A stretch of 64,000 nucleotides of DNA. Origin: Planctomycetota bacterium. GTDB lineage: Bacteria > Planctomycetota > UBA1135. Of this stretch, positions 35,928 through 51,657 are shown piece after piece. Each line of letters begins with the position of its first letter. The first letter of the stretch is position 1. The notes below the pieces were generated by a model. The model saw nothing but the letters and a program-made list of their open reading frames with translations. It did not search any database and had not been told where the DNA came from. Made by a program: the position numbers and the translations under genes. The stretch covers positions 38,630 through 102,629 of the forward strand of contig JAJFFB010000043.1 of NCBI GenBank assembly GCA_021776925.1, read 5' to 3'.

Positions 35928-35944
35928 CCGTTGCCGTTATCTGA

Positions 35945-36095
35945 CCGTGGACAAAGTCATTCCGCCCCACGGCAGCGTCTTTTTCCCCTGGACGGCGTCA
36001 GCAGAACCCGCCCCTATCTAAAGATAGGGGCCGAACCCGCTTCCTTGCCGGAAGACAAAACCACTTGCCATGGAACGAAAGCACTTTATCCACGG
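35945..36095 (+). repeat. ~150-bp structured repeat, copy A (MITE-like: 13-nt terminal inverted repeats + central hairpin)
   Basis: Hand alignment to the reverse complement of 51473-51622 gives about 128 of 151 positions identical. Ends are CCGTGGACAAAGT ... ACTTTATCCACGG. The central hairpin is shortened in this copy (GCCCCTATC-TAAA-GATAGGGGC). Confidence 0.8.
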
Positions 36096-36154
36096 CCAGC
36101 TATGCCGGAATCCATAAAAGCCTGGGACTTCTCAAAAAAGGAAGATGTCTAATA

Positions 36155-36781
36155 TCATCCTCTCAAGCTATTGAGTCTGTTTTCCCCCATGGCAATCTCG
36201 CAATCTCGGCAAGTGGATATCCAGGCGAGAGAGGACTCAGTATTCAAATGATGGTATTCACCAAAGCCAATAGATCCGGCATTTGGAAAGAGGCCGTTTT
36301 TAGAATCCTGCCAAATCTCAGAACCATAGTAGTCCAGCCAGGGTACCGGGACCCAAGTAAGCAGGGCGCCATGCATCCTGCAGACCAGATCAACCAATTG
36401 TCCATTCGGAGCGTCCATGCTCCAATCCTCCTTGAGGTCTAGAGAAACCCCAGTACATGCGGAGCACGCCCAAAACCAGGCGCCCTTCTCATCCTCGCCG
36501 AAGGTGTTGCTTCGATACTCCATGGAGAGGCGTTTCCAAGAATTGGGGGTTGCAGTAGAAAGCGGTTCGCCTCTTCCCCCCCCCCACCTCACAAAAACAC
36601 ACCCCATTTCCAATCCATGAAGCTCACACTTTCCCCATGGGATCTCATCGATAACGCGATTTGCCGAAACCAACCCGGTCCTGTCCTCTTCATGCCCACA
36701 TCCAGGACAGATAACAATAACGAGGACGACACTGGAAAGGAGTGCGGCCAAGAGTGAATCACGGATTTGGACCCGAACCAT
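36155..36781 (-). CDS. Cys/Trp-rich hypothetical protein (three CxxC motifs), low G+C
   Basis: Track ORF 36155..36784 starts at TTG; ATG at 36781-36779 is the likelier start and shares one nucleotide with the upstream stop (TGATG). N-terminal hydrophobic segment LLAALLSSVVLVIVIC. Motifs CPGC, CSAC and CRDC. I recognise no family. Confidence 0.6.
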   Translation of the reverse strand: MVRVQIRDSLLAALLSSVVLVIVICPGCGHEEDRTGLVSANRVIDEIPWGKCELHGLEMGCVFVRWGGGRGEPLSTATPNSWKRLSMEYRSNTFGEDEKGAWFWACSACTGVSLDLKEDWSMDAPNGQLVDLVCRMHGALLTWVPVPWLDYYGSEIWQDSKNGLFPNAGSIGFGEYHHLNTESSLAWISTCRDCEIAMGENRLNSLRG

Positions 36782-37080
36782 CAAGGACCAACACCTGAAT
36801 CTGGAAGAACGCTGGGCACCCAGGCCAGGCGGGCGCGGCCGCGCAGGCGTTTGACGGCGGCTTCGGCGCGGAAGGCGGAACTCTGGTCGGGGAAGGGGCC
36901 GTAATGGGCGGCTAGGGTCCAGGGGCGGCCGGCCTGAGTTGCACGAGCGCCGCCGGGCAGGCAGCCGTTGTGCTGCTCCAGGCGGCGCTCTACGGCCTTG
37001 GTGGCGCCGACGTAGGTGCGGCGCCCGCAGGCGGAAAGCAGGACGTAGACCTGCCAGGGGTCGTCGCCCGAATCAGAAAT
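36781..37080 (-). CDS. GIY-YIG nuclease-family small protein, no canonical start codon
   Basis: Hand translation of an unlisted minus frame: ...DDPWQVYVLLSACGRRTYVGATKAVERRLEQHNGCLPGGARATQAGRPWTLAAHYGPFPDQSSAFRAEAAVKRLRGRARLAW...*. It has the GIY (VYVL) and YIG (YVG) boxes, RRLxQHN and a conserved Glu. No in-frame ATG/GTG/TTG exists; ATT 37080-37078 or CTG 37104-37102 are the only near-cognate options. Confidence 0.6.
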   Translation of the reverse strand: MSDSGDDPWQVYVLLSACGRRTYVGATKAVERRLEQHNGCLPGGARATQAGRPWTLAAHYGPFPDQSSAFRAEAAVKRLRGRARLAWVPSVLPDSGVGP

Positions 37081-37837
37081 CTGATTCCTCGGTTTCGTCC
37101 GCAGAGCTGGAGTCGCTGCGGAAGGTGTTCTGGATCGTAATCGAGGTTCCGGATCCCTTGAATTCGATCACCGCTTCGGCTCCGTATTTCTCGCGCGCCT
37201 CGGCGATCATGGCGGCACGCTCTTCCTCGGGAGTGTCGCCGGGATAGCGGACGTGGACGCTGCGCTCAGCGCCCTCTTGAGGGAACATGTCGAAAGGCCA
37301 GTTTCGCCCCAAGCCACTCCAATCTTCGCCCCAGGCCGGGAAATCCATCGGAAGGAATTCGAACGGCGGGAATTCCACCCGGGGAAATTCCACCCAAGGG
37401 AATTCGATCGATGGGAACGGGTGATCGGGCCACAAGCGGTCGATTTCGGGCTTCTGCAGCCAGTCGAGGCTCGGGCTCCCTTCGGGCAGGCGGTCGAGCG
37501 GGAAATCCAGGTCCGCTCCTGGACGGCGCCCGAGGATCATTTCCTTGATCAGAACCTGGTCGCCGCGGACCAGCTTCAGGGTGACGAAATCTCCGGCGAG
37601 CAGTCCACTCAGGACCTCGACCAGCCGCGGCGAAGAGGAGATCTCGATGTCGTTGACGGCGAGCACGCGGTCGCCGGCCTGGAGTCCGGCCAGTGCCGCA
37701 GCGGTCTTGTCCTGCACCACGGCGATGGCGGCGCCATTTTGATCATTTTCCGGGTCGAGTTCGACCCCGAGGAAGCCCCCCTGCGCACTCAGGCTAGGGG
37801 CCAGGAGGAGAACAATGGGAATCAACAGTGACTTCAT
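37073..37837 (-). CDS. secreted PDZ-domain protein with EFP-type peptide repeats
   Basis: 254 aa. Signal peptide MKSLLIPIVLLLAPSLSA. PDZ (GFLGVELD...LQAGDRVLAVNDIEI...VTLKLVRG). Repeat SIEFPWVEFPRVEFPPFEFLPMDFP. Confidence 0.8.
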   Translation of the reverse strand: MKSLLIPIVLLLAPSLSAQGGFLGVELDPENDQNGAAIAVVQDKTAAALAGLQAGDRVLAVNDIEISSSPRLVEVLSGLLAGDFVTLKLVRGDQVLIKEMILGRRPGADLDFPLDRLPEGSPSLDWLQKPEIDRLWPDHPFPSIEFPWVEFPRVEFPPFEFLPMDFPAWGEDWSGLGRNWPFDMFPQEGAERSVHVRYPGDTPEEERAAMIAEAREKYGAEAVIEFKGSGTSITIQNTFRSDSSSADETEESDF

Positions 37838-37858
37838 GGTTTTGTCAGGTGGTTAATC

Positions 37859-39238
37859 TTACTGGACCACGAGGGCCAAGGGATTGGACAAGCCGCCTTC
37901 CCCATAGGCCTCTTGCAGAGCCTGCATCCAGATGGAGCGCCCCGCAAGAGCAACCGGTACCCGGAAGGTATCCAGGACCCGGCCCTGCTCATCAGGGAAA
38001 TAGCTGTCCAGGTGAAGGATCGGTAGCGACAGGAACAGGTCGCCGAAAGGAGTACTCATCGGGCCGGCGCCGGTTAGCGAATAATATACCGAAACCGCCG
38101 CGCTGGGCAGGTCGGCACGGGTGATCTCGACCTCGGCCACCCCGCCGGCAACCAGGTTGCGCACCTCGAGCTGCATGGCACTGACGAAGTCGCTGAAGCG
38201 GATGTCGTCGAGGGCGATGCCTTCGTTCTGGTCGTAACTGAAATTGTCCGCCTGGGCGAAGGCCAGGTAGTAACGCGCGTTGACCGGCAGCACCTGGGTC
38301 GACAGCGGCAGGCGCACGTTGACCCAGTCGCGGCTGTAGTTGGTGATCAGCGCCCAGTCGCGGACCAGCGGCGTCCACACCAATCCGTCGGGGCTGAGAA
38401 AAACGCCGTCGTCGGGGTCGCTCTCTTCACCGAGGTTTTTGACCGAAAAATGCAGGGTCATGGCGTCGAAGCCGCGCCCATCTACGCCGACGACCAGCGC
38501 GTTGGCGACAAAGTGGGGCGCGAGGATGCTCGGCGCACCCCCCATCTCGATGGCATAGGAGCCGCTGTTGGCGTAGGTCGGCAAGCCGTATTGGCCGTAG
38601 TTGACCCAGGCCTCGGCGTCGGCGAGCCGGGTCTCTTCGTCGAGTTCGTTGATCGCCATCCAGGCGTCGAGCATGCCGCCTTCGAAATCGGCGGTCAGGC
38701 GCTGCACCGGCCGGAACAGCGCCGGCAGATTGGGCCAATGCTGCGGCGGCACGTACGGTTGGTCGTCAACCCGTACCCGGTCGAGGCCCCATTCGTTGGC
38801 GCCGTCGCCAGCGTAGTGGAAGTTGAGGCGCACTCCGCTGTGACCGGCAAGACTGCCGAGATCGAGGTCGGTACGCAGTCCGTCGCCGCTGAGCGGCCCG
38901 GTGATGTCCTCCAACAGACGGAAGGTCAGGCCCCCGTCCAGGGTCGCCTCGACCCGGTTGTGATGGCGGAAAACCGAATAGCGCTGGCTGTGCAGCAGAT
39001 GCAGATGAATCGCGCTACTGGAGCTGAAATCCAGCGGCGGGGTCAGCAGGGAGCTGTCGGCGAAGCCGGGCAGGTCATCGTGGAAGGCGGCCGAAAAGCC
39101 GTCGTGCTGCCAGTTCGAACCGGCACCGCTGTGCACCACGTTCCAGCCGGTGGGCGGGAAGACCTGGCTGTCAAAGTCTTCGTCCAAGGCCACCCACTGC
39201 GGGCTGGCGGCGAACATCAGGGTGAGGAGCACGCTCAT
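37859..39238 (-). CDS. secreted tandem beta-sandwich (MAM / choice-of-anchor-J-like) protein with family C-terminal module, paralog P1
   Basis: Start ATG 39238 overlaps the P2 stop (ATGA). Short hydrophobic N-terminus MSVLLTLMFAASPQ. Family motifs LDEDFDSQVFPPTGW, VDDQPYVPPQHWPNLP, GEESDPDDGVFLSPDG, LDDIRF, YSLTGAGPMSTPFG, C-terminus SNPLALVVQ. Confidence 0.8.
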   Translation of the reverse strand: MSVLLTLMFAASPQWVALDEDFDSQVFPPTGWNVVHSGAGSNWQHDGFSAAFHDDLPGFADSSLLTPPLDFSSSSAIHLHLLHSQRYSVFRHHNRVEATLDGGLTFRLLEDITGPLSGDGLRTDLDLGSLAGHSGVRLNFHYAGDGANEWGLDRVRVDDQPYVPPQHWPNLPALFRPVQRLTADFEGGMLDAWMAINELDEETRLADAEAWVNYGQYGLPTYANSGSYAIEMGGAPSILAPHFVANALVVGVDGRGFDAMTLHFSVKNLGEESDPDDGVFLSPDGLVWTPLVRDWALITNYSRDWVNVRLPLSTQVLPVNARYYLAFAQADNFSYDQNEGIALDDIRFSDFVSAMQLEVRNLVAGGVAEVEITRADLPSAAVSVYYSLTGAGPMSTPFGDLFLSLPILHLDSYFPDEQGRVLDTFRVPVALAGRSIWMQALQEAYGEGGLSNPLALVVQ

Positions 39239-40272
39239 TGCACCACCTCCGCGATGGCGTTGGATCGGGTTCCGCCGCCACCGGCCTGAAGTTCGATCGC
39301 CTGCACCCACAGCAGGCGCCCGGTCAGCGCGAAGGGAATCGGGAAATCGGTGGTCAGCACGCCAAAGCCGTTGGAGGTCATCGGCGGCAGCTGGGTGACC
39401 GGCGGCGACAGCGCCAGATCGCCGTAGGGCGAACCGCTCGGGCCCGCTCCGCTGAGCGAATAGGCCAGTTGCACGGTGGCTCCCGGAAGCAGCGTTTCAA
39501 CGCGCAGGGTGGCGTCGGTGCCGCCAACCAGTGAACTCATGCTGAATAGCGGCCGCAAGGAGGGCGTCCACATCGAGACCTGGTCAAATTCGTAGCCGAA
39601 GGTCGAGCCCGATCCGGAAATGAACTTCAATTCGTTGAAGTGAATGTCGGGCATGGTCTCGTCGATCCCGGGATTGGTCTCGGGAAAGGCCTCGAGCGGA
39701 TCGGCCCACACGCGCACGCGGTCGTCGCCGACCTTGAAGTCGATGCGCGTGACCAGCGTGCTGGCAAAGTCGACGTTGGTTCCGGGGATGAACACCGGGT
39801 CGGTGACCCACGGTTTCTCGATGCCGAGTTCGTCACTGCCGAAGGGGCTGCCGATGAACAGGGCCTCTTCCTGGAACTGCCAGTTCAGGACCATACCGCC
39901 GTAGGCCTCGTCGCCGCCAGGAATGCGCCGCAGCGAAAAACGGAACCACAACGTGGTGCCGTCCTTGCCCAAGGTCCAATTGTCGGCGATCTCGAGCATC
40001 GAAGCCATGTCGAGCAGGTGATAGCTGGCGGCGTGGTCGCCCTTGCCACGCAGCATGCCGCCGATGCGGTCGTGTCCGGGGTACTCAACCGCGCCCCAGT
40101 CACCGTTGTCCCCTGACCACCAGGTACCGGTGAAGCCCTTGCCGCCCTCGACGCCGCCGATGAAGCCGGGCTCGTACTCGAAGCTGTCGTGCAGCAAGCG
40201 CACGTTCTGCGCCGTTCCGGAGGCGCTCAGCAGCGCCCCGGTGGCAAGAGTGAGGAGCAGGAGTCTGCGCAT
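39235..40272 (-). CDS. secreted LamG/ConA-like-pattern protein carrying the same C-terminal module, paralog P2
   Basis: Start ATG 40272 lies 2 nt after the GH13 stop. Signal peptide MRRLLLLTLATGALLSASGTA. The N-terminal domain differs from P1 (LLHDSFEYEPGFIGG...GFTGTWW...TLWFRFSL...RVWADP). The C-terminal 100 aa align with P1/P3/P4/P5 (YSLSGAGPSGSPYGDLALSPP...LWVQAIEL...SNAIAEVVQ). Confidence 0.78.
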   Translation of the reverse strand: MRRLLLLTLATGALLSASGTAQNVRLLHDSFEYEPGFIGGVEGGKGFTGTWWSGDNGDWGAVEYPGHDRIGGMLRGKGDHAASYHLLDMASMLEIADNWTLGKDGTTLWFRFSLRRIPGGDEAYGGMVLNWQFQEEALFIGSPFGSDELGIEKPWVTDPVFIPGTNVDFASTLVTRIDFKVGDDRVRVWADPLEAFPETNPGIDETMPDIHFNELKFISGSGSTFGYEFDQVSMWTPSLRPLFSMSSLVGGTDATLRVETLLPGATVQLAYSLSGAGPSGSPYGDLALSPPVTQLPPMTSNGFGVLTTDFPIPFALTGRLLWVQAIELQAGGGGTRSNAIAEVVQ

Positions 40273-40274
40273 GT

Positions 40275-42458
40275 TCAGTCCTGTGAGTAGACCAGGGCGG
40301 TGTAGGGCCCGACCGGAATCACCGCGCTGTAAGGCATACCATCCCATGGGGTGGCGGTTGCCTGAACGTCGGTCGAGGCGAAGTTGCCGAAGAAGGCGTC
40401 GTAGCCCGACCAGTCGCTATTGAAGCGCAGACGCCAGGTGCCCGCTTGCGGCAGGCCGATGCGGTAGTTGCTCCAGCCGCGGTCGGCGAAATTGGCCACC
40501 ACCACGACGTCGTCGCCGGGTCCGCCCTGGTCCCAACGATGGAAGGCGATCATCTTGTCGCCGTTGTTGACGTGGTGGACGTTGGTACCGTGGCCGCGCA
40601 GGCCACGGGTACTGTTAGACCAGTTGCGGCGCAGCCTGATCAGGTCGCGGTACATCGCGCGGATGCCGCTGAAGGTGACGCGCCGGCCCCAGTCCAGGGG
40701 CTGGTCGTCGTCGAAGTAGCCGTCTTCGAGGAATTCCTGCCCCTGGAACAGCATCGGAATGCCGGGCGAGGTCAGCATCAGCGCCGCGCCCAGTGTCGAG
40801 CGTTTCTTCGAGTACCAGGAGTCGGCGTTGCCCGGCCAGATCTCCTCGGGCACGCGCGCGCCACCGTTGGCGTTTTCATCGTGGGACTCGGTGTAGATGA
40901 CGCGCTGGAACGCGTCGCCGTTGTAGTTGTGGGCGATGGCGTCGCGCACCGCGTACATGTCGCGGTCGGAATCGTTGGGGGCGATCAGCGCGGCGCGCAG
41001 CGGATGCACGAACTCGGCGTCCCACTGGCTGTCAAAGCCGGCCCCGCCAGCACCGCTGTCCTGGGTGATCCAGGGGTTGTTCCACATGTCCTCGGCGATC
41101 GAGATCTTCCAGCCCTGGAACCAGTCGATCTCGTTGTTGACCCACTGCAGCAAGGTCCAGGCCTCGGGGATGTCGCCGCTATTGCCATTGCGCATGAAGG
41201 AGGTCGAATCCCAACGCAAACCGTCGAGGCGGTACTCCTGCAGCCAGAACATCGCGTTGTCGCGGATGTACTGGCGGACTTCCCCGCGACCATAGTCGGG
41301 GCGCGTGTCGCCCCACGGAGTCACGGCGCGGTCGTCGTTGTAGAAATACACCCCCCCCCACGGCCCCTGGGCCCAGCCGTCGAAGCGCCACATGTCGAGG
41401 TCGTTGGGACCCCAGTGATTGTTGACCACGTCGAGGATCACGGCGATGCCGCGCAGGTGCGCCTGCTTGACGAACTCGCGCAACGCTGCAGGCCCGCCGT
41501 AGGCGCTCTCCACGGCAAAAGGTTGGCTGTAGTTGTAGCCCCAGCTCCGATCGCCGGGGAATTCGGCCACCGGCATCAGCTCGATGACGTTGATGCCGAG
41601 GTCGGCGAGGTCGTCCAGTTTCTGCAGCGCGTGCCACAGCGTGCCCGGACCGCTGCCGTTGTTGTCGTTGAAGGTACCGACGTGCATCTCGTAGAGCACC
41701 ATGTCGTCCCAGCTCGGCGTGCTCCATGACTGCCCGCCCCAGTCGAAACGCGAGGCGTCGACGACCACCGAATCGCCGACCGAGTTGGTCATCTCTTCGG
41801 CGCGCGGATCGTTGCGCCACAAGGTGCTGCCGTTGCGCAGCACGTATTGATAATGCGCCCCGTGGCCGAGATTGCGCACGTCGAGCGACCAGTGGCCGTT
41901 GCCTTCGGAAACCATCGGACTGCGCGTCGCCGACCAGCCGTTGAACAGGCCGGCGAGCCACACCTTGCTGGCGTTGGGAGCCCACACGCGGAAGGCGGTT
42001 CCGCTCTCGCCGGTGACGCCGTCGAGGTAGGGGGAAGCGCCCATGCCGCCCCGGATCGAGGCCTTTTCCCGGGTGCGGTAATCAATGCCATAACTGGTAC
42101 CGGTCGAATGGCGGACGCCGATCCACCAGCGCCCACTGCGCAGCGACGGATCGGTGCGCGGGCCGACGACCAGGCTCTCGTTGCTGGTGCCCGGCGTGGC
42201 CGCAGCCATGTCCCAATTGTGCAGATCGGGCTTGGAGCCGAAGCGCAGATAGAGGTCGGCGTCGTTGCCCAGCTGTTGGGTCAAATCGACCTCGAGGCTG
42301 GCCTGCCAATCCTCGACCCAGATCGAATAATAATCGAAGCGGATGGCCACCGGGGCGGCCTGTCCGCCCGCGGGCGGAGGCACTTGCACCTGTCCGGCCC
42401 AGGCCGAAGCGGCAAAAAGGCCCGTGAAGAACGGAAGGGCGAGGGAGTAAGGCAACAT
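40275..42458 (-). CDS. secreted GH13 alpha-amylase-family enzyme (branching-enzyme-like, with N-terminal PPC-like and CBM48-like modules)
   Basis: 727 aa with a signal peptide. All four GH13 regions are present: LDVVNNH, GLRWDSTSF, SIAEDMW, YTESHDE. Upstream are FRVWAPNASKVWLAGLFNGW (E-set/CBM48-like) and DADLYLRFGSKPD (pre-peptidase C-terminal-like). Confidence 0.9.
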   Translation of the reverse strand: MLPYSLALPFFTGLFAASAWAGQVQVPPPAGGQAAPVAIRFDYYSIWVEDWQASLEVDLTQQLGNDADLYLRFGSKPDLHNWDMAAATPGTSNESLVVGPRTDPSLRSGRWWIGVRHSTGTSYGIDYRTREKASIRGGMGASPYLDGVTGESGTAFRVWAPNASKVWLAGLFNGWSATRSPMVSEGNGHWSLDVRNLGHGAHYQYVLRNGSTLWRNDPRAEEMTNSVGDSVVVDASRFDWGGQSWSTPSWDDMVLYEMHVGTFNDNNGSGPGTLWHALQKLDDLADLGINVIELMPVAEFPGDRSWGYNYSQPFAVESAYGGPAALREFVKQAHLRGIAVILDVVNNHWGPNDLDMWRFDGWAQGPWGGVYFYNDDRAVTPWGDTRPDYGRGEVRQYIRDNAMFWLQEYRLDGLRWDSTSFMRNGNSGDIPEAWTLLQWVNNEIDWFQGWKISIAEDMWNNPWITQDSGAGGAGFDSQWDAEFVHPLRAALIAPNDSDRDMYAVRDAIAHNYNGDAFQRVIYTESHDENANGGARVPEEIWPGNADSWYSKKRSTLGAALMLTSPGIPMLFQGQEFLEDGYFDDDQPLDWGRRVTFSGIRAMYRDLIRLRRNWSNSTRGLRGHGTNVHHVNNGDKMIAFHRWDQGGPGDDVVVVANFADRGWSNYRIGLPQAGTWRLRFNSDWSGYDAFFGNFASTDVQATATPWDGMPYSAVIPVGPYTALVYSQD

Positions 42459-42534
42459 CAGGGAAAACCCGCTGCAGACGGATCTGCATCCAATTCTACC
42501 ACCAGAAGGCGGCGCTAGGATGTCCCGCCGTGCG

Positions 42535-42611
42535 GCGCCCGTAGCTCAACAGGATAGAGCACCGGACTTCTAATCCGACGGTTCCAGGTTCGAGTCCTGG
42601 CGGGCGCGCCA
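42535..42611 (+). tRNA. tRNA-Arg (anticodon TCT)
   Basis: Hand-folded cloverleaf. Acceptor GCGCCCG/CGGGCGC, D arm GCTC..GAGC, anticodon arm CCGGA-CTTCTAA-TCCGA (one C-A mismatch at the top of the stem), T arm CCAGG-TTCGAGT-CCTGG, encoded CCA. Confidence 0.9.
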
Positions 42612-42621
42612 GGCGGCTGGA

Positions 42622-43998
42622 TCAGGGCAGAACGAAGGTGTTGGGGGTGGAAATCACCACCACGCCGTTAAAAAGCTCTACCGCCTGGCTCCACGCGGTC
42701 AGGCCCGAGGTCCACGGGGGCGCTTCGCCGGTGATGCGCACCTGGCCGGCAGCGTCGGCGAAGGAAACCGCCAGGATCTCGATCGGGCGGCTCAGATCCA
42801 GCGCCCCCCACGGGGTGAAGGTGGGTCCCGGTCCGACCTTGGAAAAATAGAAGGTGACGCGGGCGGCGGGCTGGGCGCGGAGGACCTCCAGGTTGACCTT
42901 GTTGTTGAGGCCGCTCCAGACGTCGAGTTCAGGCTGGTAGAAAAAGCGCAGATCATCGACCACCACGCCGTCGAGGTCGGCGAATGGCCGGTTGTCGGCC
43001 TGGGCGATGGCGAAGTAGAAATCGATGCTGGTGTCGACGTCGGCCGAATCCAGCGGAACGCGCACCGACTGCCAGGTACCAAGGTTGCCGGGCCCGCCGG
43101 TGGCGGTTTCCCAGTCATTGCCCAGCGCGAACCAGGTGGTGCCGTCCTGGCTCAGGAACACGCCGTCGTCGGGGTCGACTTCTTCGCCAAAATTGAGCGC
43201 ATTGAACTGACACAGGAGGCGTCCGCCGCCCCCGCCGTTGAGGCCAACGATCAAGGCGTTGGACATGATCGGGCCGGGACCGCTGCCCGGGCGCCGCCCC
43301 ATTTCCAGAGCACACTCGCCGAAGGCGGTAGTGCACGGACCGAGCTGACCGTAATTGCACCAGGCATCGGCGCTGTCCAAACGACTGGCAGCGTCAAGGG
43401 CGTTGACGCGCAGGTACATCGGAAAGAGCCCGTCCAGCCCCTCGAAATCCTGGAAGAAACCATCGGCCATAGTGATGCGTTGCGGCAGGTGCGGCCAGCG
43501 CGGCGGCGGCGCATAGGGTTGGTCGTCGACGCGCACCGATTCCAGCCACCACTGATTGGAGAAATCTCCCTGGTAGTGAAAGGCCAGCTGCACGGTCGGC
43601 AGCCCGGCCCAGGCGCTGAGATCCAGTTCCAGCATCTGGCCGCCGCCGTCGGCGATCGCCGACACGTAGACGTCGCTGAAAGTAAGGCCGCCATCGAGGG
43701 AGACCTGCATCGCGTTGCGATCCCGGAAGGGACTGTCCAAGGAACCCTCGACCGCGTGCAGCCACACAGAACCGAAGGACTGCAGGTCCATGACCGGGGT
43801 CAGCAGGCGGCTGTCCTGAGCACCGAGGAAGGCGTCGTGCAGTGCACTGCCGCTGGACTCTTCCCAGCCCGGCCCCACGCCCAGGAAGGTCTCGCTCCAG
43901 GCCGGTGGCGGAAACACGCCGCCGTCGAAACTCTCGTCCAAAGCCACCTGCTGGGACGGCGCGGTGAAGAGCAGCAGCAACGCGGCAACCGCAACCAT
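42622..43998 (-). CDS. secreted tandem beta-sandwich protein with family C-terminal module, paralog P3
   Basis: Start ATG 43998-43996 shares one nucleotide with the P4 stop (TGATG). N-terminus MVAVAALLLLFTAPSQ. Motifs LDESFDGGVFPPPAW, VDDQPYAPPPRWPHLP, GEEVDPDDGVFLSQDG, VDDLRF, FSKVGPGPTFTPWG. Confidence 0.8.
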   Translation of the reverse strand: MVAVAALLLLFTAPSQQVALDESFDGGVFPPPAWSETFLGVGPGWEESSGSALHDAFLGAQDSRLLTPVMDLQSFGSVWLHAVEGSLDSPFRDRNAMQVSLDGGLTFSDVYVSAIADGGGQMLELDLSAWAGLPTVQLAFHYQGDFSNQWWLESVRVDDQPYAPPPRWPHLPQRITMADGFFQDFEGLDGLFPMYLRVNALDAASRLDSADAWCNYGQLGPCTTAFGECALEMGRRPGSGPGPIMSNALIVGLNGGGGGRLLCQFNALNFGEEVDPDDGVFLSQDGTTWFALGNDWETATGGPGNLGTWQSVRVPLDSADVDTSIDFYFAIAQADNRPFADLDGVVVDDLRFFYQPELDVWSGLNNKVNLEVLRAQPAARVTFYFSKVGPGPTFTPWGALDLSRPIEILAVSFADAAGQVRITGEAPPWTSGLTAWSQAVELFNGVVVISTPNTFVLP

Positions 43999-45410
43999 CA
44001 CTGGACCTCCAGCGTCAGCGGGTTGGAAAACCGACCGTCCACGCCGAGGAATTCGATCGCTTGCGCCCACACCGCGCGGCCAATAGCTGCGACCGGAACC
44101 GCCACCTGCAAACGCACCATTCCGTTGAGGTCCGGATCGCGGGTCACCAGGGTGACGGTCGGAGCGCTGACCTGAGCCAGGCCATAAGGCGTCAGCGTCG
44201 GCCCAGCGCCGTCGAAGGAATAAAGAATGGTGACCACGCGTGCAGGATCGGCGCCCTCGACCAGGACCTCGGCGGTCTGACCGCCAATGAGATTGCTGAC
44301 GGTGACCTGCAGAGGCTGGACGCTGCTGCCGATGCGCACGTCATCGATGGCAACGCCGTCGTTGCTGCCGTAGGGGAAGTCGTCGGCCTGGGCAAAGGCG
44401 AGGAAAAAATTACCATCCAGGGATACCGGAGTGGTGTCCATGAAGAAGGACAGCTTGCGCCAGCTTTCGGCGTAAGCGGTGCCGCCGGTCTGCAACACCC
44501 AGTCGGTGCGCAGCGGGTGCCAGGTGATGCCGTCCTGGCTGAGGAAGACGCCATCGTCGGCGTTCCATTCTTCGTTGAGCTGGTATACCTGAAATTCAAG
44601 CGCCGGCTGCACCAGGCTGCTGCCGTTGAGGCCGATGACCAAAGCGTTGGACACGTCATGAAAGGTCGCGGCATGAGGATGCAAGCCGAGTTCCAGACAG
44701 GTGCTTCCCGAGTAGGCAAAAAGACTCGGGGCGAGTTGGCCGACGTTGCACCAACCCTCCAGGTCGGGCTTGCGGCTGAACTCATCGACGCTGTTGATGC
44801 CCATCGACGCGGGCACGACTCCCAGCAATTCGTCGAAGCGCATGCGGTAGCCTTCGGCCTCGTCGAACTGGGTCGGCAACTCCGGCCAATAGGGCGGAAT
44901 CAACGGCGGCAGGTTGTCGATAGTGACGCGGTCCAGGGTCCATTCATTGGCGAAATCGCCCTGGTAGTGAAACATCACCTGAAAACCGGCGATGCCGGCG
45001 TAGGCGCTGAGATCGAGTTCAAGCGGAAAATTAGGTCCGTCCTGCGGCTGGCTGACCTGGTGCACCAGATTCGAGCTGATGCCGCCATCGAGCGTCACCC
45101 GCACCTCATTGATTTCGCGATAGGTGCTGAACAACTGCCCGTGGATCGCGTGCAGGCTCAGCTGCGAAAAGCCGGTGGAATCCAGCAGCGGGGTGACCAG
45201 ATCAGCATCGCTGAGCCCGAACCAGTCGAGATGGCGCGCACGCCCCGAGGGCTCCCAATCCCAGCCGGGGGTCGAGCCCTGGTTCCAGTGCTCCCAGCCG
45301 CTGGGCGGAAAGAGGGCGCTGTCGAATTCCTCGTGCAGAAGAACCGATTGGCTGGAGAGAGGCGCCGCAAGGGCGCTCAAACAGGTCAGAGTGACGATCA
45401 GGACCTTCAT
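43998..45410 (-). CDS. secreted tandem beta-sandwich protein with family C-terminal module, paralog P4
   Basis: Start ATG 45410 (MKVLIVTLTCLSALAAPLSS). Motifs LHEEFDSALFPPSGW, IDNLPPLIPPYWPELP, NEEWNADDGVFLSQDG, IDDVRI, YSFDGAGPTLTPYG, C-terminus SNPLTLEVQ. The 583-aa track ORF has a spurious N-terminal extension. Confidence 0.8.
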   Translation of the reverse strand: MKVLIVTLTCLSALAAPLSSQSVLLHEEFDSALFPPSGWEHWNQGSTPGWDWEPSGRARHLDWFGLSDADLVTPLLDSTGFSQLSLHAIHGQLFSTYREINEVRVTLDGGISSNLVHQVSQPQDGPNFPLELDLSAYAGIAGFQVMFHYQGDFANEWTLDRVTIDNLPPLIPPYWPELPTQFDEAEGYRMRFDELLGVVPASMGINSVDEFSRKPDLEGWCNVGQLAPSLFAYSGSTCLELGLHPHAATFHDVSNALVIGLNGSSLVQPALEFQVYQLNEEWNADDGVFLSQDGITWHPLRTDWVLQTGGTAYAESWRKLSFFMDTTPVSLDGNFFLAFAQADDFPYGSNDGVAIDDVRIGSSVQPLQVTVSNLIGGQTAEVLVEGADPARVVTILYSFDGAGPTLTPYGLAQVSAPTVTLVTRDPDLNGMVRLQVAVPVAAIGRAVWAQAIEFLGVDGRFSNPLTLEVQ

Positions 45411-45466
45411 GCCATCGCAGCAAAGGATCCAGGGGGAATTCCTAGGATACGCGATGGGGTCGCGGA

Positions 45467-46921
45467 TCAGGCAAGGATTTGCCGGACAACCTTGCCGTGC
45501 ACGTCGGTCAGACGGAAATCGCGCCCCTGGTGGCGGAAGGTCAGCCGCTGGTGGTCGATGCCAAGGCAGTGCAGGATGGTGGCGTTGACGTCGTGCAGAT
45601 GCACCGGATCCTGGACGATGTTGTAGCTGAAATCGTCGGTCTGCCCGAGTTGGACGCCGCCCTTGATGCCTCCGCCCGCGAACCAGAAGGTGAAACAGCG
45701 CGGATGATGGTCGCGGCCATAGTCCTCGCGCGTCAGCTTGCCCTGGCAATAGACGGTGCGCCCGAACTCACCGCCCCACACCACCAGGGTGTCGTCGAGC
45801 ATGCCACGCTGCTTCAGGTCCTGCAGCAGGCCAGCGCTCGGCTGGTCGACGTCGCGACAGCTGCGCCGGATGGTCCCGGGCAGATTGAAATGGTGGTCCC
45901 AGCCGCGGATGAAAATCTGGACGCAGCGCACGTCGCGTTCGAACATGCGCCGCGTTAACAGGCAGCTGTGGGCGAAGGTGCCCGGGGTGGTCACGTCAGG
46001 GCCGTAGAGGTCGAGCACGTGCTCGGGCTCGCCGCTGACGTCGACCAGGTCGGGCACCGAAGCCTGCATGCGGAAGGCCATTTCATATTGGGCGATGCGC
46101 GTGGCGATCTCGGGATCCGGATCCTGCTGCAGACGCTGCTGGTTGAGGCTCTGCAGGGTGTCGAGCATGGCGCGGCGCGAAGCGCGGTCGATACCGTCCG
46201 GATCAGACAGGTACAGGATCGGATCGCCGTTGGCGCGCAGGGCCACGCCCTGATGCCGGCTGGGCAGGAAACCGGTTCCCCACATGCGCGAGAACAGCGC
46301 TTGTGCTTCCTTGCGCCCGGTCCAGGTCGGCGTCATGACGACGAAACTGGGCAGGTTCTGGTTGGCGCTGCCGAGGCCGTAGGACAACCACGCCCCCATG
46401 CTCGGCCGCCCAGGAAGCTGGTGGCCGCTGAGGATGAAGGTCATCGCCGGGTCGTGGTTGATCGCCTCGGTGTGGATGCTGCGCACGATGGCGAGGTCGT
46501 CGACCATCGCCGCGGTGTGCGGCAGAAGTTCACTGACCCAGGCGCCGCTGGCTCCATGCTGCTTGAACTCGAACAGGGATGGCGCGATCGGCAGGCGCTC
46601 CTGTCCCGAAGTCATCGTTGTGATGCGCTGTCCCTGGCGGATCGAATCGGGCAGGTCCTGGTCGAAGCGCTCACCGAGACCTGCTTTGTAGTCGAAGGTG
46701 TCGAGTTGCGAGACTCCGCCGGACATGAACAGGTAAACCACGCGCTTGGCGGTCGGCGCGTGGTGGAAGACGGGCATGACTCCGCCCAGGCCGGGTTCCT
46801 GGGCCAGCAGCCGACCAGGCAGCAAGGAGGCAAGCGAAGCGCTGCCGAGTGCAGCACAGCTGCGGCCGAGGAATTGGCGCCGGCTGAGTGCCGCAAGGTC
46901 GAGGTGCTCAGAGGGGTTCAT
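45467..46921 (-). CDS. DUF1501-family (sulfatase-fold) protein with Tat signal
   Basis: Start ATG 46921. Twin-arginine motif [26 protein letters not shown]1501-type C-terminus ([10 protein letters not shown]...[22 protein letters not shown]). Starts 5 nt after the upstream stop. Confidence 0.88.
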
Positions 46922-46926
46922 CGGCC

Positions 46927-49900
46927 TCACAGGCGGGTCACGGTCTCGTCGAGGTTGAGCAGGACGCTGGCAACCGCGGTCCAGGCGGCCAGCTCGGCGG
47001 CATCGCTGTGCATCGCCGGGGCCGAATCCCCCACCGCGACCAGAGCGGCGGCAGCCGTTGGATCCTGGGCATAGACGCGCCGCTGGCGTACTAGAAGTGC
47101 GTTTAGCAGGCGCACCTCCTCGGCAGTGGGCAGGCGCGCGGTGCAGCGGCGGAAGCCCTGGATCAGTCCGACCAGATCCTCTGATCCCACCAGGGTTTCG
47201 GCGAGGACGCGCGCGGCCTCGAGGAACTGCACGTCGTTCATCAGTGCCAGTGCCTGCAGCGGTGTATTGGTGCGCTCGCGGCGCACCACGCAGGACTCGC
47301 GCGTCGGCGCGTCGAACAACGACATCATGGGGGGTGGAGCGGTGCGCTTCCAGAAGGTATAGAGGCTGCGCCGGTACAGCGCGGCACCCTCGTCGGCCTG
47401 GAACACCGCGGTGTTGCTGGAGGTATAGGCGACCGCTTTCCATAATCCCGCAGGCTGATACGGCTTGACGCTTGGACCGCCGATCTGGCGTTGCAGCAGT
47501 TCGGAAATACTCAGCGCCGCATCGCGGATGACCTCGGCGTCGAGGCGGAATCGCGGCCCGCGCGCCAGCAGCCGGTTGTCGGGGTCGCGCGCCGACTTGG
47601 CGGCATCGAAGGCCGAGTTCTGGCGGTAAGCCGAAGACAGCACGATCAGGCGGATCACGTGGCGTACGTCCCAGCCGCTGTCGGCGAACTCGCGCGCCAG
47701 CCAGTCGAGCAGACGCGGATGACTCGGCCACTCTCCTTGGGAACCGAAGTCTTCGGCGGTGCGCACCAGGCCGACGCCAAAGAACTGCTGCCACAGACGG
47801 TTGACCTGCACGCGCGCGGTCAACGGATGCTGCGGATCAACCAGCCATTGCGCCAGATCCAGCCGCGTAGCGCGCCCGTCGCTGGACAACGGCGGCAAGG
47901 CGGCCGGCACCCCAGGCTGAACCTGCTGCGCAGGCTGGTCATACTGCCCGCGGGTGAGCAGGAAGGCGGGGCGGATCTCGGCGCGTTCGCGCGTGATCAA
48001 GGAGGTCGGCACCTGTGCCGTCAATGCGCTGAGCTGGGCTTCGACGGCTTCCGCCTGTGCCGCCAGTTCGGCCCATTCGGGCGAATGACGGCGGCGGTAG
48101 AAACTGCGCAGCAGGTCCTTTTGCGCCAGGCTGCGCTCGGGGTCGGCCTGTTCCAGCGCCAACGCAAGATCGGGTGCCAGCCCACCCACCTCGGCGGACC
48201 GCACTTCGAAAGCATAACCGAAACCACCGCCGTAATTGACGATCTTGATCAGCAGTTGATTGCTTCCTGCGCTCAAGGGCAGTTCGACCTGATCCTGGCC
48301 CAGGGCCAAAGCGCGACGTACCTCGCGCTCCAGCACCGCCTCGCCGTTCAACCACACGCGCAGGGCGTCGTCGCTGCCGAGCATCACGGTCAGGGAACGC
48401 GCGTTGGGGCTGTGGATCTCGCGAAAGAGGTAGCGGCTGCCGACCTCTCCCTCGAGCAGATGCAGGACTCCGTCCTGGTCCTCCGCCCGCGCCTGCCAAA
48501 GAATTTCGTCTTCGACCCCGCGCCCGCCTTCGGCTCCGGGCAGGCGACCTTGTTCCGGTGGATAGACGGTAGCGTAGGCTTCGCTGCCGCTGGCGGCGGC
48601 CAGAAAACGGGTCTGCCACCATGGATCCATGCGCACCGGCGACAGCGCCGGGTCGGCGGTGCTGGACACTTGGAAACGCGCCAAGACGTGCTGGCGATGG
48701 ACCGACTCGAAGCGCAGGCGCAACACAAGTTGCCCATCACGGCCCGGCGCCAGCGGCGTAACGAAGGGGAACCAGGCGCTGTGTTCCTGCTTCACCTCGG
48801 GCAGCAACGCCCAGCCGCTGCTGTTGCTACCATCCAGCGCGTTGGCGACCGGAAAAGCGTCCTGGGCGTGATCGGCCAGCGCGGAGCCAAGCTCAAGCGC
48901 CACCGCGTCGCCCCCGGCGGCGGGTTGGAAGAAAGCTTCCACAGCGGTGAGGACGACGTTGCCATTGGCCGAGCGGCCCACCGCCGCCGCCGGCGTGGCA
49001 GGATCGGCGGCCACATCAAGGCGCAGGGCGGTCAGCCCGGCAGCCGGCAGGGGTGCGCGCAACTCAAACACCTCGACGTCGGGGTTGGCGCCGGTCGCGT
49101 GCACCGACAGGTCGGGCAGCTGGGTCAGGGTGGAGCCATGAAACGCGTTCAGCGAGTCGAAGCTGAGCGGCTGCCAACGCTCATGCGCTGCCTGGTAGGC
49201 GGCGTTCTGCCACTCTAGCTGCGCTCGGTCGACCGCGGGCAGCGGTGCGTCGAGGCGCGCCTGGGCCTGCGCCAGGCTGGTGCCAAGCGCGTCCTGTTCG
49301 GCCGCCTGCGCCGGGGTCGGCGCCTGCACCACCGGAGCGGGGGCGGGACCGTTGCCGTCGCTGGCTTCTTCGGCGATGTTGTTGAAGAAGGCGTAAAGGC
49401 GGTAGTACTCCTCTTGCGTGATCGGGTCGAACTTGTGATCGTGGCATTGCGCGCAGCCGACACTGAGGCCGAGCAGCACGGTGCCGAAGGTGTCGACCCG
49501 GTCCATCGCATACTTGGCCAGGAACTCCTCAGCGATCATGCCGCCCTCGGCGGAGGTCGGATTACAGCGGTTGAAACCGGTGGCCAGCAATTGGTCCAGA
49601 TCGGGTTCTGGCAGCAGATCGCCAGCGAGCTGATCGACGACAAACTGGTCGTAGCGGCGGTTTTCAGCGTAGGCCTCGATCACCCAGTCGCGATAGCGGT
49701 GGATCGAACGGAAGTTATCCAGGTGCAGACCGTGGGTGTCGCCATAACGCGCCGCGTCGAGCCAGAAGCGCGCCATGTGCTCGGCGTGGGCGGGGTTGGC
49801 GAGCAAGCGTTCGACCACGCGCGCATAGGCCCCAGGGCGCGAGTCAGCGAGGAACTCGTCGATCTCGGCCAGCGTCGGCGGCAGGCCGGTGAGATCGAAG

Positions 49901-50433
49901 GTGACGCGCCGCAACCAGCGCTCAGCGTCGGCCTCAGGAGCGGGCAGCATGTCCTCGCGCTCGAGCCGCTCCAATAAGAAATGATCGATCGGGTTGCGCG
50001 GCCAGCCACTCTCGTGCACCACCGGCAACGCCGCCTTTTCCGGTGCTACGAAGGACCAGTGGGCGGCGTAACCAGCCCCTTGCTCGATCCAGCGGCGCAG
50101 GGTTCGGATCTGCTCCGGGCTCAGAGTCTTGCCGCTCTTGCGTGGCGGCATGCGGTCGCTGACGTCGTCGTTACTGATGCGAAACCACAATTCGCTGTCG
50201 TCAAGGTCGCCTGGAACCACTGCCGAATAGCCGTCGAGGTCAGCGGTGGCACCGGCGAAGGAATCCAGGCGCAGGCCTGCCTCGCGCGTGCCGGCGTCGG
50301 GACCATGGCAGAGAAAGCAGTTCTCCGACAGGATCGGACGCACGTCGCGATTGAAGTCGACCAATCCGCCCTCCGGGGCGGCAGGCGTCTGGACGGCGGT
50401 CAAGAGGAGCAGGGCGATCATGGTGGAGACCAC
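46927..50433 (-). CDS. PSCyt1 / DUF1549 / DUF1553 family protein
   Basis: 1168 aa. N-terminal cytochrome-like [23 protein letters not shown]1549-like [12 protein letters not shown]...[16 protein letters not shown], a central beta-rich insert, and a DUF1553-like C-terminus ending [14 protein letters not shown] 50433 or ATG 50421 start. Confidence 0.88.
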
Positions 50434-50440
50434 TCCCAGT

Positions 50441-51454
50441 TCAGCGTAAGCGCTGCAGACGGGTCACGCGACCGTGCGCGTTCCAGTCCTGGACCAGCAG
50501 GCTGCCGTCGCGGTCCCAGGCAGCGCCGTGAGGAGCCAGGAAAACGCCTTCTTGCCACAGGGCTGGAGCGACCCCGTTGTTGGCGCGCAAGGCCGGATCG
50601 GGTTGGTCACCGAGATGGAAGCGCAGCTCGCCGTCGACTCCGACCACACTGATGCGGCCAGCGAGGTCGGCCACCAGCAACAGGCCACCCTGCTCATCGA
50701 TCGAACACGGACGCCGCAGGAAACCGGAGATCTGGCGCTCGTAACTGCCGTCAGGACGGAAGAACTGCAGCCGGTGGTTCTCGCGGTCGGCGACCACCAG
50801 CCGTGCGGCGTCGCCTTGTCCCAGCCACAACAGTCCGTGGGGGGTGCGGAACTGCCCATCGCCATCGCCAGGGCCGCCGATCGACTCCAGGTAGTGGCGC
50901 TGGGCGTCGTAGTGATGCACCCAACCGAGGCCGTAGCCATCCGCGATCCACAGGCTGCCATCGTCGGCGACGGCCACCGCGGTCGGCTTGTAGCGCCCCG
51001 CATCCTGATACTTGCCTGATTCGGTGGGCACGCCGAGTTCCCACACCTTGCGGCCGTCGAGGCTGTACTTGTAGACCTTGCCGTGGGCGTGGTGCGCCAG
51101 GTAGAGGAACTCCTGGTCGCCTTCCTGGTTCAGGCAGATGCTGTGCACCCCACCCGCCAGTTCTTCTCCCCAGCTGTCGACCAGCCCGCCGGACGCATCC
51201 AGGACGATGATCGCGTGGGCGCTGTCGGTGCTGAAATAGATGCGTCCGGCGCGATCCAAAGCGAAACCGCCGTGGGTGTTGCCGAGGGTCATTTCTTCCG
51301 GCAAGTCAAGCCAGGCCCCGTCCCAGGCGTAGAGCAGATCGCCGACGCCGAGTTTGACTCGGCCGTCGTCGGCCCAGGGGGGGGGCTGCTGACAGCGCGC
51401 GAACAACACGCCGAGCAAAACGGCCGCAGCACACACAAGGAGGCGGGTGGACAT
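50441..51454 (-). CDS. NHL-repeat six-bladed beta-propeller protein (peptidyl-alpha-hydroxyglycine lyase-like pattern)
   Basis: Start ATG 51454, preceded by GGAGG, with signal peptide MSTRLLVCAAAVLLGVLFA. NHL-type repeat GDGDGQFRTPHGLLW...LVVADRENHRLQFFRPDG. The stop lies 7 nt before the next gene. Confidence 0.82.
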   Translation of the reverse strand: MSTRLLVCAAAVLLGVLFARCQQPPPWADDGRVKLGVGDLLYAWDGAWLDLPEEMTLGNTHGGFALDRAGRIYFSTDSAHAIIVLDASGGLVDSWGEELAGGVHSICLNQEGDQEFLYLAHHAHGKVYKYSLDGRKVWELGVPTESGKYQDAGRYKPTAVAVADDGSLWIADGYGLGWVHHYDAQRHYLESIGGPGDGDGQFRTPHGLLWLGQGDAARLVVADRENHRLQFFRPDGSYERQISGFLRRPCSIDEQGGLLLVADLAGRISVVGVDGELRFHLGDQPDPALRANNGVAPALWQEGVFLAPHGAAWDRDGSLLVQDWNAHGRVTRLQRLR

Positions 51455-51472
51455 CGCCTCCACCCTAGCAAG

Positions 51473-51622
51473 CCGTGGATAAAGTGCTTTCGTGCCATTG
51501 CGAGTGGGTTTGTTCCCTGACAAGGAAGCGGGTTCGGCCCCCTATCCGTGGATAGGGGCCGAACCTGCTGACGCCGGCCAGGGGAGAAAGACGCCGCCGT
51601 GGGGAGGAATGACTTTGTCCGG
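51473..51622 (-). repeat. ~150-bp structured repeat, copy B (inverted relative to copy A)
   Basis: The reverse complement aligns to 35945-36095. Intact central hairpin GGTTCGGCCCCCTATC-CGTG-GATAGGGGCCGAACC (one bulged C). Occupies the gap between the MFS stop (51658) and the NHL ATG (51454). Confidence 0.8.
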
Positions 51623-51657
51623 AGCTAGCTAGCGCCGGTTCCCGGCGACGACATCCA

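Follow-up and report, generated by a model that had tools for sequence, protein, structure and literature searches.

MITEs derived from IS5-group IS are small non-coding elements whose terminal inverted repeats are identical to those of autonomous elements encoding a DUF772/DDE transposase; they are intergenic, are flanked by 4-bp duplications and are predicted to yield a stable stem-loop transcript (PMC5493358; PMC10969869). The target duplication of IS5 has the form Py-T-A-Pu, with CTAG the commonest (PMC5493358). ERIC sequences in enterobacteria and Correia (NEMIS) elements in Neisseria are whole-length imperfect palindromes of 100-170 bp that lie between co-transcribed genes, form long RNA hairpins and exert an orientation-dependent effect on the mRNA involving RNase III or RNase E cleavage (PMC10969869). 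REP/BIME sequences and other extragenic palindromes are also intergenic, palindromic and repeated, and the REPs are 20-40 bp long, lack target-site duplications and are tied to RAYT (IS200/IS605-like) transposases (PMC3733652).

In the present work, we describe two copies (A and B) of a repeat in a 64-kb stretch of DNA from a planctomycete-like bacterium (hereafter the window, i.e. the whole stretch that was analysed). The repeat shares the above features of the IS5-group MITEs, and differs from them in that the matching IS scores best with the IS1182 NCBIfam model, below its cut-off, in that the host genome is high in G+C rather than AT-rich, and in that the partner IS was found in other genomes and not in the same genome. 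A whole-length imperfect palindrome of such a size, predicted to form a long RNA hairpin, is also found here, and the strand-specific stability predicted for the present element may be the same kind of property; however, there is no sequence similarity to them, and two copies per genome were seen here vs. tens to hundreds. From the REPs the element is distinguished by its 160-bp length, its 4-bp duplications and its DDE-type IS termini. Our analyses indicate that A and B are old, decayed MITE copies, each inserted separately into a short intergenic gap. Very probably they are separate insertions of a non-autonomous counterpart of a clade of IS5/IS1182-superfamily IS, and neither delimit nor invert the segment between them.

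Position and architecture of the two copies

Copy A occupies positions 35941-36099 (159 bp, minus strand, which is the strand that folds as a single long hairpin) and copy B positions 51469-51628 (160 bp, plus strand, again the strong folder), the boundaries having been refined by comparison with homologues and with IS termini. They are the sole copies in the window and are inverted relative to each other. Copy A lies between a 209-aa low-G+C ORF (36155-36784, minus strand) and a PD40 gene, whose start codon (35927) is 13 nt downstream of the end of the element. Copy B lies between the stop codon of an MFS transporter gene (51658) and the start of an NHL gene (51454), and its strong-folding strand is antisense to both of these genes; between its duplicated CTAG and the ATG of the NHL gene 10 nt are left, GGAGG included. 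The ORFs that overlap the elements (158-160 bp) are spurious read-through, and the elements have no coding sequence of their own.

The original prediction, made from the sequence alone, of an inverted pair of about 150 bp that matched by hand at 128 of 151 positions was about right. The two copies are 85.9% identical over 149 nt by BLASTN, 82.5% identical (132/160) over the full element, and show a mean column identity of 88% in a MAFFT alignment that includes short flanks; a repeat finder reports them as two adjoining inverted pairs, viz. 35949-36030/51539-51620 (87%) and 36027-36109/51459-51541 (83%). The longest exact run that they have in common is 22 bp. Within the window a covariance model matches these two copies alone, with scores of 162-171 bits, and their similarity is far above chance. 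The imperfect terminal inverted repeats described in the prediction were confirmed, with exact matches to CCGTGGAYAAAGT at 35945, 36083 and 51473 only, the fourth end (the other end of B) being degenerate (CTCCGGACAAAGT); in A, and in the two homologues L008 and L025 described below, the CWGRCCGTGGAYAAAGT ends pair with one another. The proposed central palindrome is found in every copy, and the proposed recurrence of the motif CCGTGGATA at both the terminus and the hairpin centre holds for B, whose apex it forms, and not for A (CTATCTTTAGATAG) or for the homologues (CTATTCGTAGATAG). Rfam, a scan of which had been suggested, gave no family match at the gathering threshold for the whole window, and around copy A a search at E<=10 returned only a chance match (E = 1.2). 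The MITE also had no match in a plasmid collection.

Related insertion sequences, target sites and an empty site

A 20-mer from the terminus was used to scan a genome collection, which did not include the genome of the source organism. Full-length homologues (L008 and L025) were found on separate contigs of the Planctomycetota MAG NORP40 and are 74-79% identical to A and B (BLASTN); two metagenome scans gave no further MITE copies, and the copy numbers seen are two in the window and two in NORP40. The 20-mer also matched a 1.5-kb Longimicrobiales IS, with five copies in one MAG and a sixth in another, as well as a Kuenenia-type IS, and in every one of these IS copies it lies exactly at the element terminus. 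The four bases beyond the search pattern (CAGC) are also the same in the NORP40 MITEs and the Longimicrobiales IS. The Longimicrobiales and Kuenenia-type IS have 20-24 nt of terminus in common with the MITE, together with the same flanking tetranucleotide, and the terminal inverted repeats of the clade are roughly 17-24 bp long, with the form CAG(G/C)CCGTGGA(C/T)AAAGT.... These closest IS copies belong to other lineages, and their likeness to the MITE is confined to the terminal ~24 bp; neither the window nor NORP40 contains an autonomous IS with these termini.

One of the IS copies (L003) has CTAG on both of its sides; its terminal repeats are perfect over 15 bp and, together with the duplicated CTAG, lie within a perfect inverted repeat of 20 nt. 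It encodes a 460-aa transposase in which the Pfam domains DUF772 and DDE_Tnp_1 both pass. Its best NCBIfam score is with IS1182 (201.9 bits, cut-off 270), followed by IS5_4 (89.3 bits, cut-off 140), and the parent IS is assignable to the IS5/IS1182 superfamily only, the curated family scores not being reached. The Kuenenia-type transposase is 49% identical to that of L003, and a plasmid homologue annotated as "IS5 family transposase", whose element has termini CAGGCCGTTGACGAAGT adjoining CTAA, has an identity of only about 47% to the matching IS transposases. CTAA or CTAG stands beside the Kuenenia-type and pLB1 copies.

The target sites of the MITE are of the same type. Copy B is flanked by a direct repeat of CTAG (51465-51468 and 51629-51632), L008 by CTAG on both sides and L025 by TTAA on both sides; CTAG occurs 29 times in the window, or about 4.5e-4 per position. 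Copy A is flanked by TTAT on the left (35937-35940) and, in the sequence outside the copy on the right, by CTAT (36100-36103). They agree at only 3 of the 4 positions and depart from canonical Py-T-A-Pu, and probably represent a 4-bp target-site duplication that has decayed. The homologous copy L025 has a preserved empty site: in close relatives, ten contigs whose adjacent alcohol dehydrogenase is 96-97% identical at the amino-acid level read ...TTTTCTGATG CTAA ACTTGCG..., with one CTAA and no element, where NORP40 reads ...TTTTCTGATG TTAA [158 bp] TTAA ACTTGCG.... Same-species contigs for A and B all carry the elements, and the syntenic loci of relatives (L041-L044) have no MITE copy. The termini, the Py-T-A-Pu duplications and this exact empty site support the suggestion that A and B are non-autonomous, MITE-like mobile elements.

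Judging from the shared termini, the MITE would be mobilised in trans in this lineage, by a transposase of this IS clade that is supplied from elsewhere in the genome and recognises the MITE ends; insertion would occur at a Py-T-A-Pu tetranucleotide, these 4 bp being duplicated. In a genome of 66% G+C such stop-codon-containing tetranucleotides are expected to be rare and to lie mostly in short intergenic gaps, which would explain why every copy is a few nt from a stop or start codon. Between two strains, copy B has 3 differences in 160 positions and its flanks have 2 in about 2118, a contrast consistent with relaxed constraint on B.

Gene order across the insertion points

In the relatives the gene order is MFS, two paralogs, tRNA-Arg, GH13, two paralogs, PDZ, GIY-YIG and Peptidase_MA_2 onward, and in three of their loci (L044, L042 and L041) this conserved order spans both insertion points. 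The window differs from them only in the position of NHL and in PSCyt/PSD1 with DUF1501, the low-G+C ORF, PD40 and an aminotransferase. The original prediction had taken everything between the copies to be accessory and the copies to be possible island borders, which this synteny does not support. Pairs of MITEs can move the DNA between them, as in MITE-flanked integrons (PMC10969869), and the segment does hold lineage-specific material (viz. PSCyt/PSD1 with DUF1501, and the low-G+C ORF); nevertheless, it is highly improbable that A and B bound a composite transposon or a genomic island with horizontally acquired cargo. The outer flanks are unlike (TTAT to the left of A and CTAG to the right of B), there being no common outer target duplication, and B has a perfect duplication of its own, which argues that A and B are separate insertions. 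Most of the supposed cargo, viz. the 471/457-like paralogs, tRNA-Arg, GH13, the 346-like and 462-like genes, PDZ and GIY-YIG, is collinear with the relatives, and the collinearity goes on outside the copies, both on the MFS side and on the other side through Peptidase_MA_2, M1 peptidase, sigma-54 activator, histidine kinase, GARS and FUR. Between the copies, 500-bp stretches mostly have 61-69% G+C, close to the window mean of 66%, the exception being 36.0-36.5 kb. Because most of the intervening DNA is in conserved order in relatives, the copies mark neither a mobile nor an invertible island.

The prediction had also offered the copies as recombination substrates by which the 15.4-kb segment could invert, as a polymorphism or a switch. 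The copies are indeed inverted and 82-86% identical, and both stand at points of local gene-order difference from the relatives. However, their 22-bp longest identical run is short in comparison with the minimal pairing lengths for homologous recombination, and the protein-coding genes of the segment are all co-directional with its flanks, as they are in L044 and L042, where inversion would set every segment gene against them. A second same-species sample shows the MFS-B-NHL junction (L040) in the window's arrangement only, and the preserved part of the A-PD40 junction (L045) in the window's orientation. A single exchange between differently duplicated elements would moreover have mixed the flanks of B, which read CTAG/CTAG, and in the scanned ORFs, those of 32.6-54.3 kb, neither an invertase nor a recombinase was apparent. 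An invertible segment is on this evidence very improbable. The chance that the copies are conserved 5' regions carried along with duplicated downstream genes, the scenario that the prediction had named as its own refutation, is close to nil: the PD40 and NHL genes directly downstream both encode secreted beta-propeller-type proteins, but these have no detectable similarity (best E = 1.7), A and B are oppositely oriented relative to them, and the genes that follow the NORP40 copies are unrelated, an alcohol dehydrogenase among them.

Strand-specific folding and significance

For each of five sequences, the predicted fold of one strand is a single 160-nt hairpin, which contains 8-13 G·U pairs and has a folding energy of -90 to -109 kcal/mol, the opposite strand giving -61 to -75 kcal/mol. 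This predicted asymmetry suggests that one strand is under constraint. A purely DNA-level transposon model does not require so marked an asymmetry. Were the element co-transcribed with its flanking genes, a long hairpin would form in the mRNA and, depending on its orientation, could affect how the mRNA is processed, how stable it is or how it is translated, as in Correia and ERIC.

The element might be primarily a structured RNA (a cis-regulatory leader hairpin or a small RNA gene) with a secondary likeness to a transposon, or a MITE that has been co-opted. An unbiased self-alignment of the palindrome is in keeping with this, as it contains 9-12 G·T vs. 0-3 A·C mismatches; nine pairs are changed on both sides (4.8 ± 1.3 in shuffles, 0-2 in slid controls), two U·G pairs are invariant, a start codon lies roughly 13-40 nt beyond the end of each of the 4 insertion sites, and in 3 of the 4 the strong-folding strand is the sense strand. 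Nonetheless, B is antisense to its neighbours, so that orientation is inconsistent, and in the window it carries strain-specific changes that break pairs; scans of 35700-36400 and 51250-51850 gave no sigma-70-like promoter or intrinsic terminator inside the elements, Rfam offers no match, and the orthologous NHL gene of relatives has no such element upstream. In addition, the five sequences represent two lineages only, most of the asymmetry being inherited from one ancestor, and the maintenance of DNA palindromy alone would also give compensatory change. We therefore regard a primary or co-opted RNA function as unlikely, and retain the reading of A and B as MITE insertions. A bolder proposal, likewise of low probability, is that this MITE family is itself under single-strand selection, most plausibly as RNA. 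The element, or its master copy, might then serve as a mobile leader hairpin whose action depends on orientation (an RNase III or translation-control module). This reading is suggested by the uninterrupted 160-nt hairpin of one strand, which G·U pairs and compensatory changes maintain in two distant lineages, and by a start codon within 13-40 nt of every copy.

Our results thus resolve a suspected island border or invertible segment into two ordinary, independent MITE insertions, and the 15 kb that they enclose is mostly conserved core synteny, which guards against its mis-annotation as a mobile island. The elements constitute a previously unrecorded MITE family of uncultured Planctomycetota (158-160 bp, termini CAGSCCGTGGAYAAAGT, Py-T-A-Pu duplication), which is linked to a clade of IS5/IS1182-superfamily elements. 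Post-transcriptional regulation has been little studied in Planctomycetota, and the strand-specific hairpin provides a small, testable lead on MITE-derived RNA structure in this phylum. If the element does act as a leader hairpin, it would rewire the expression of whichever gene lies downstream of its insertion in these planctomycete-like bacteria.

Two MITE copies and their relatives

Our analyses identify the inverted repeats A and B as a genuine pair of MITE copies, which represent a previously known kind of element. The repeat finder, MAFFT and BLASTN all recover the two repeats as the original prediction described them. The first of these aligns the inverted pairs 35949-36030/51539-51620 (87%) and, adjoining, 36027-36109/51459-51541 (83%), which far exceed all other inverted repeats of the window in length, and the other two give a core identity of 86-88%. 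Comparison with homologues and with the termini of insertion sequences (IS) places copy A at 35941-36099 and copy B at 51469-51628, with 132/160 identical positions over the full element. The predicted terminal repeats and central palindrome are both present, the terminus of the MITE family being CAGSCCGTGGAYAAAGT, and the predicted recurrence of CCGTGGATA at the hairpin apex is found in B and not elsewhere, so that it is a B-specific feature.

When one genome for each species was scanned for the degenerate terminal 20-mer CCGTGGAYAAAGTSMTTYCG, 26 stretches were returned versus roughly 17 expected by chance, most of them (three groups excepted) single chance matches within genes. Two full-length MITE homologues are located on different contigs of the Planctomycetota MAG NORP40, viz. 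L008 (2732-2888, flanked by CTAG/CTAG) and L025 (2608-2765, flanked by TTAA/TTAA). They are 94% identical to each other; against A and B they reach 74-79% in BLASTN and 70-77% when aligned over the full length. In the 3' arm of the apical stem (51555-51570), GGGGYGGGTTC is common to A and the two NORP40 copies, whereas copy B has GGGGCCGAACC. The change, confined to B, closes an internal loop into a perfect stem and looks as though template switching or conversion within the hairpin had copied one arm from its partner.

A covariance model (R1) built on five family members scores A at 171 bits and B at 162 bits and detects no further copy, even a weaker one, in the window or in the syntenic loci of relatives. 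Rfam returned nothing relevant, whether for the full 64 kb at the gathering threshold or in the surroundings of A at E<=10, and BLASTN against a plasmid collection gave no match to the element. Metagenome scans yielded 0 matches with the interior motif GGAAGCGGGTTCRGCCCC..TAT and 13 with the terminal motif, none of them a MITE and one of them the end of a Kuenenia-type IS.

The 20-mer also forms the extreme end of a 1.5-kb IS, always with CTAG adjoining, which is present in five copies in the Longimicrobiales MAG CBDBCF01 (L002, L003, L012, L013, and L024) and in one copy in another (L006). At least five near-identical copies are found on one 2.9-Mb contig of CBDBCF01. The copy at L003 encodes a 460-aa transposase, is bounded by CTAG at both ends and has terminal repeats that are perfect over 15 bp (CAGCCCGTGGATAAA). 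The Longimicrobiales transposase contains Pfam DUF772 and DDE_Tnp_1. Among NCBIfam models it scores best with IS1182 (201.9 bits; cut-off 270), then with IS5_4, and remains under the curated thresholds of the IS1182 and IS5 models alike; the IS is an element of the IS5/IS1182 superfamily. The Kuenenia-type IS, whose transposase is 49% identical to that from Longimicrobiales, ends in CAGGCCGTGGACAAAGTG adjoining CTAA or CTAG, and a homologue on plasmid pLB1, annotated "IS5 family transposase", has the termini CAGGCCGTTGACGAAGT adjoining CTAA. The terminus, which all three elements carry, is therefore the hallmark of an entire clade within the IS5/IS1182 superfamily. Four bases lying beyond the search pattern, CAGC, are identical in the NORP40 MITEs and the Longimicrobiales IS, and this agreement is independent of the way in which the matches were found. 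A tblastn search of the window with the IS transposases revealed no transposase remnant and no encoded transposase of the matching family.

Target-site duplications and an empty site

Insertion of IS5 elements duplicates Py-T-A-Pu, most often CTAG (PMC5493358). Copy B has CTAG on either side, and this tetranucleotide is so rare in the 64-kb window (only 29 occurrences) that the probability of a flanking pair by chance is negligible. The flanks of A (TTAT/CTAT) match at 3/4 positions, which is consistent with an old insertion; direct repeats decay over time (PMC10969869).

The decisive test of mobility is provided by L025. The gene 3' of its MITE encodes a class III alcohol dehydrogenase, for which 96-97% identical orthologues are present in ten other contigs. 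All ten are element-free and read ...TTTTCTGATG CTAA ACTTGCG...ATG, where L025 reads ...TTTTCTGATG TTAA (158 bp) TTAA ACTTGCG...ATG. The orthologue contigs thus represent the site in its exact empty state, with Py-T-A-Pu present once, from which it follows that the MITE family is or was mobile and duplicates 4 bp upon insertion.

Gene order between and around the copies

The nearest relatives with long contigs (NHL protein identity 55-58%) served as the reference for gene order. Their genes follow the order MFS, 471-aa paralog, 457-aa paralog, tRNA-Arg(TCT), GH13, 346-aa protein, 462-aa protein, PDZ, GIY-YIG, NHL, Peptidase_MA_2, M1 peptidase, sigma-54 activator, histidine kinase, GARS, and FUR. 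All of these were found by tblastn in the window on the minus strand in the same order, running from 52.7 to 23.2 kb, and the DNA between A and B is therefore mostly conserved core synteny that extends past both copies. Four paralogous genes without Pfam domains, arranged in two pairs (37859-39310 and 39235-40347; 42622-44070 and 43998-45749), and a fifth copy at about 59068-60405 correspond to the direct-repeat families D3-D7 of the repeat finder, and the relatives have the same set at the same positions. The tRNA-Arg(TCT) gene (42535-42611) shares its syntenic slot, between the 457-like paralog and GH13, with that of the relative's locus L044 (3884-3960); it is co-directional with its flanking genes in L044 and on the opposite strand in the window, and has been flipped on its own in one lineage.

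Both copies coincide with local synteny breakpoints. In the relatives' loci L044, L042, and L041, NHL lies between GIY-YIG and Peptidase_MA_2; in the window it is located (50441-51454) directly after MFS and MITE B, 15 kb from this ancestral slot, and is followed by the PSCyt/PSD1 and DUF1501 pair (45467-50433). The slot itself (34671-36784) is occupied by a low-G+C 209-aa ORF, MITE A, the PD40 gene and an aminotransferase. The cysteine-rich ORF (36155-36784, minus strand), with a signal- or lipoprotein-like N-terminus, lies within a stretch of 51% G+C (vs. 66%) that adjoins MITE A; Pfam gives no match to it, and relatives lack a counterpart at that position. No record exactly matching the PD40 protein was found. 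None of the rearrangement models considered, in which NHL was relocated via the two MITEs (by excision and re-integration, or by successive inversions), is reconcilable with the inverted orientation and the one copy per junction. The simpler reading of the MITEs at breakpoints is that new, non-operonic junctions tolerate insertions.

The original prediction was right in calling the repeats MITE-like, in view of their IS-type termini, the 4-bp duplications and the empty site at L025. Its proposal that they mark island borders is not supported, the DNA between them being mostly syntenic and the outer flanks different. Nor is the alternative proposal, that they could invert the intervening segment: the longest exact run common to A and B is 22 bp, and in contigs of the same species from a second sample (99.8-99.9% identity) MFS-B-NHL is ordered as in the window and, where the 3' part of A runs into PD40, its orientation is likewise unchanged. 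Inverting the segment would also not approach the relatives' gene order, since by synteny it would then oppose both flanks. The lack of any relationship between PD40 and NHL excludes that the copies are conserved 5' regions of duplicated genes. A and B are separate insertions, since the sequences bordering the pair on the outside differ and B has a duplication of its own. One second-sample contig (L045, Logan SRR15505519; 1-41 vs. window 35863-36010) begins within A, from which it passes at a short microhomology (AAG.CGCTGCCGTG) straight to the PD40 gene. The missing stretch of about 120 bp comprises the 3' end of the MITE together with the start codon and signal peptide, and reflects either a deletion variant of that population or an artefact of assembly where the contig ends.

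Strand asymmetry of the hairpin

The minus strand of A and the plus strand of B are predicted to fold into one uninterrupted hairpin (-100.3 and -89.8 kcal/mol; z-scores -9.7 and -6.7), compared with only -61 and -66 kcal/mol for the opposite strand, and the two NORP40 copies and the strain variant show this asymmetry too. In unbiased self-alignments of the individual palindromes, the strongly folding strand has 9-12 G·T vs. 0-3 A·C mismatches. Among the five sequences, 93.8% of cells pair, both-sided pair changes number nine (vs. 4.8 ± 1.3 in shuffles and 0-2 in slid controls), and two U·G pairs are invariant. These results point to constraint on one strand, most simply at the RNA level, and parallel the ERIC and Correia elements, whose RNA effects depend on orientation (PMC10969869). 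However, the five sequences represent two lineages, so that much of the asymmetry was inherited once; B is antisense to its neighbours; and the window's B carries strain-specific, pair-breaking changes, with 3 strain differences in 160 bp vs. 2 in about 2118 flanking bp. Scanning for promoters and terminators detected neither a sigma-70-like promoter nor a terminator inside the two copies. All four insertions (4/4) end about 13-40 nt 5' of a start codon; a preference for inserting at tetranucleotides that resemble stop codons, within narrow gaps between genes, can account for these positions. What interest remains attaches to the strand-specific hairpin and to the fact that both copies fall at local breaks in synteny.
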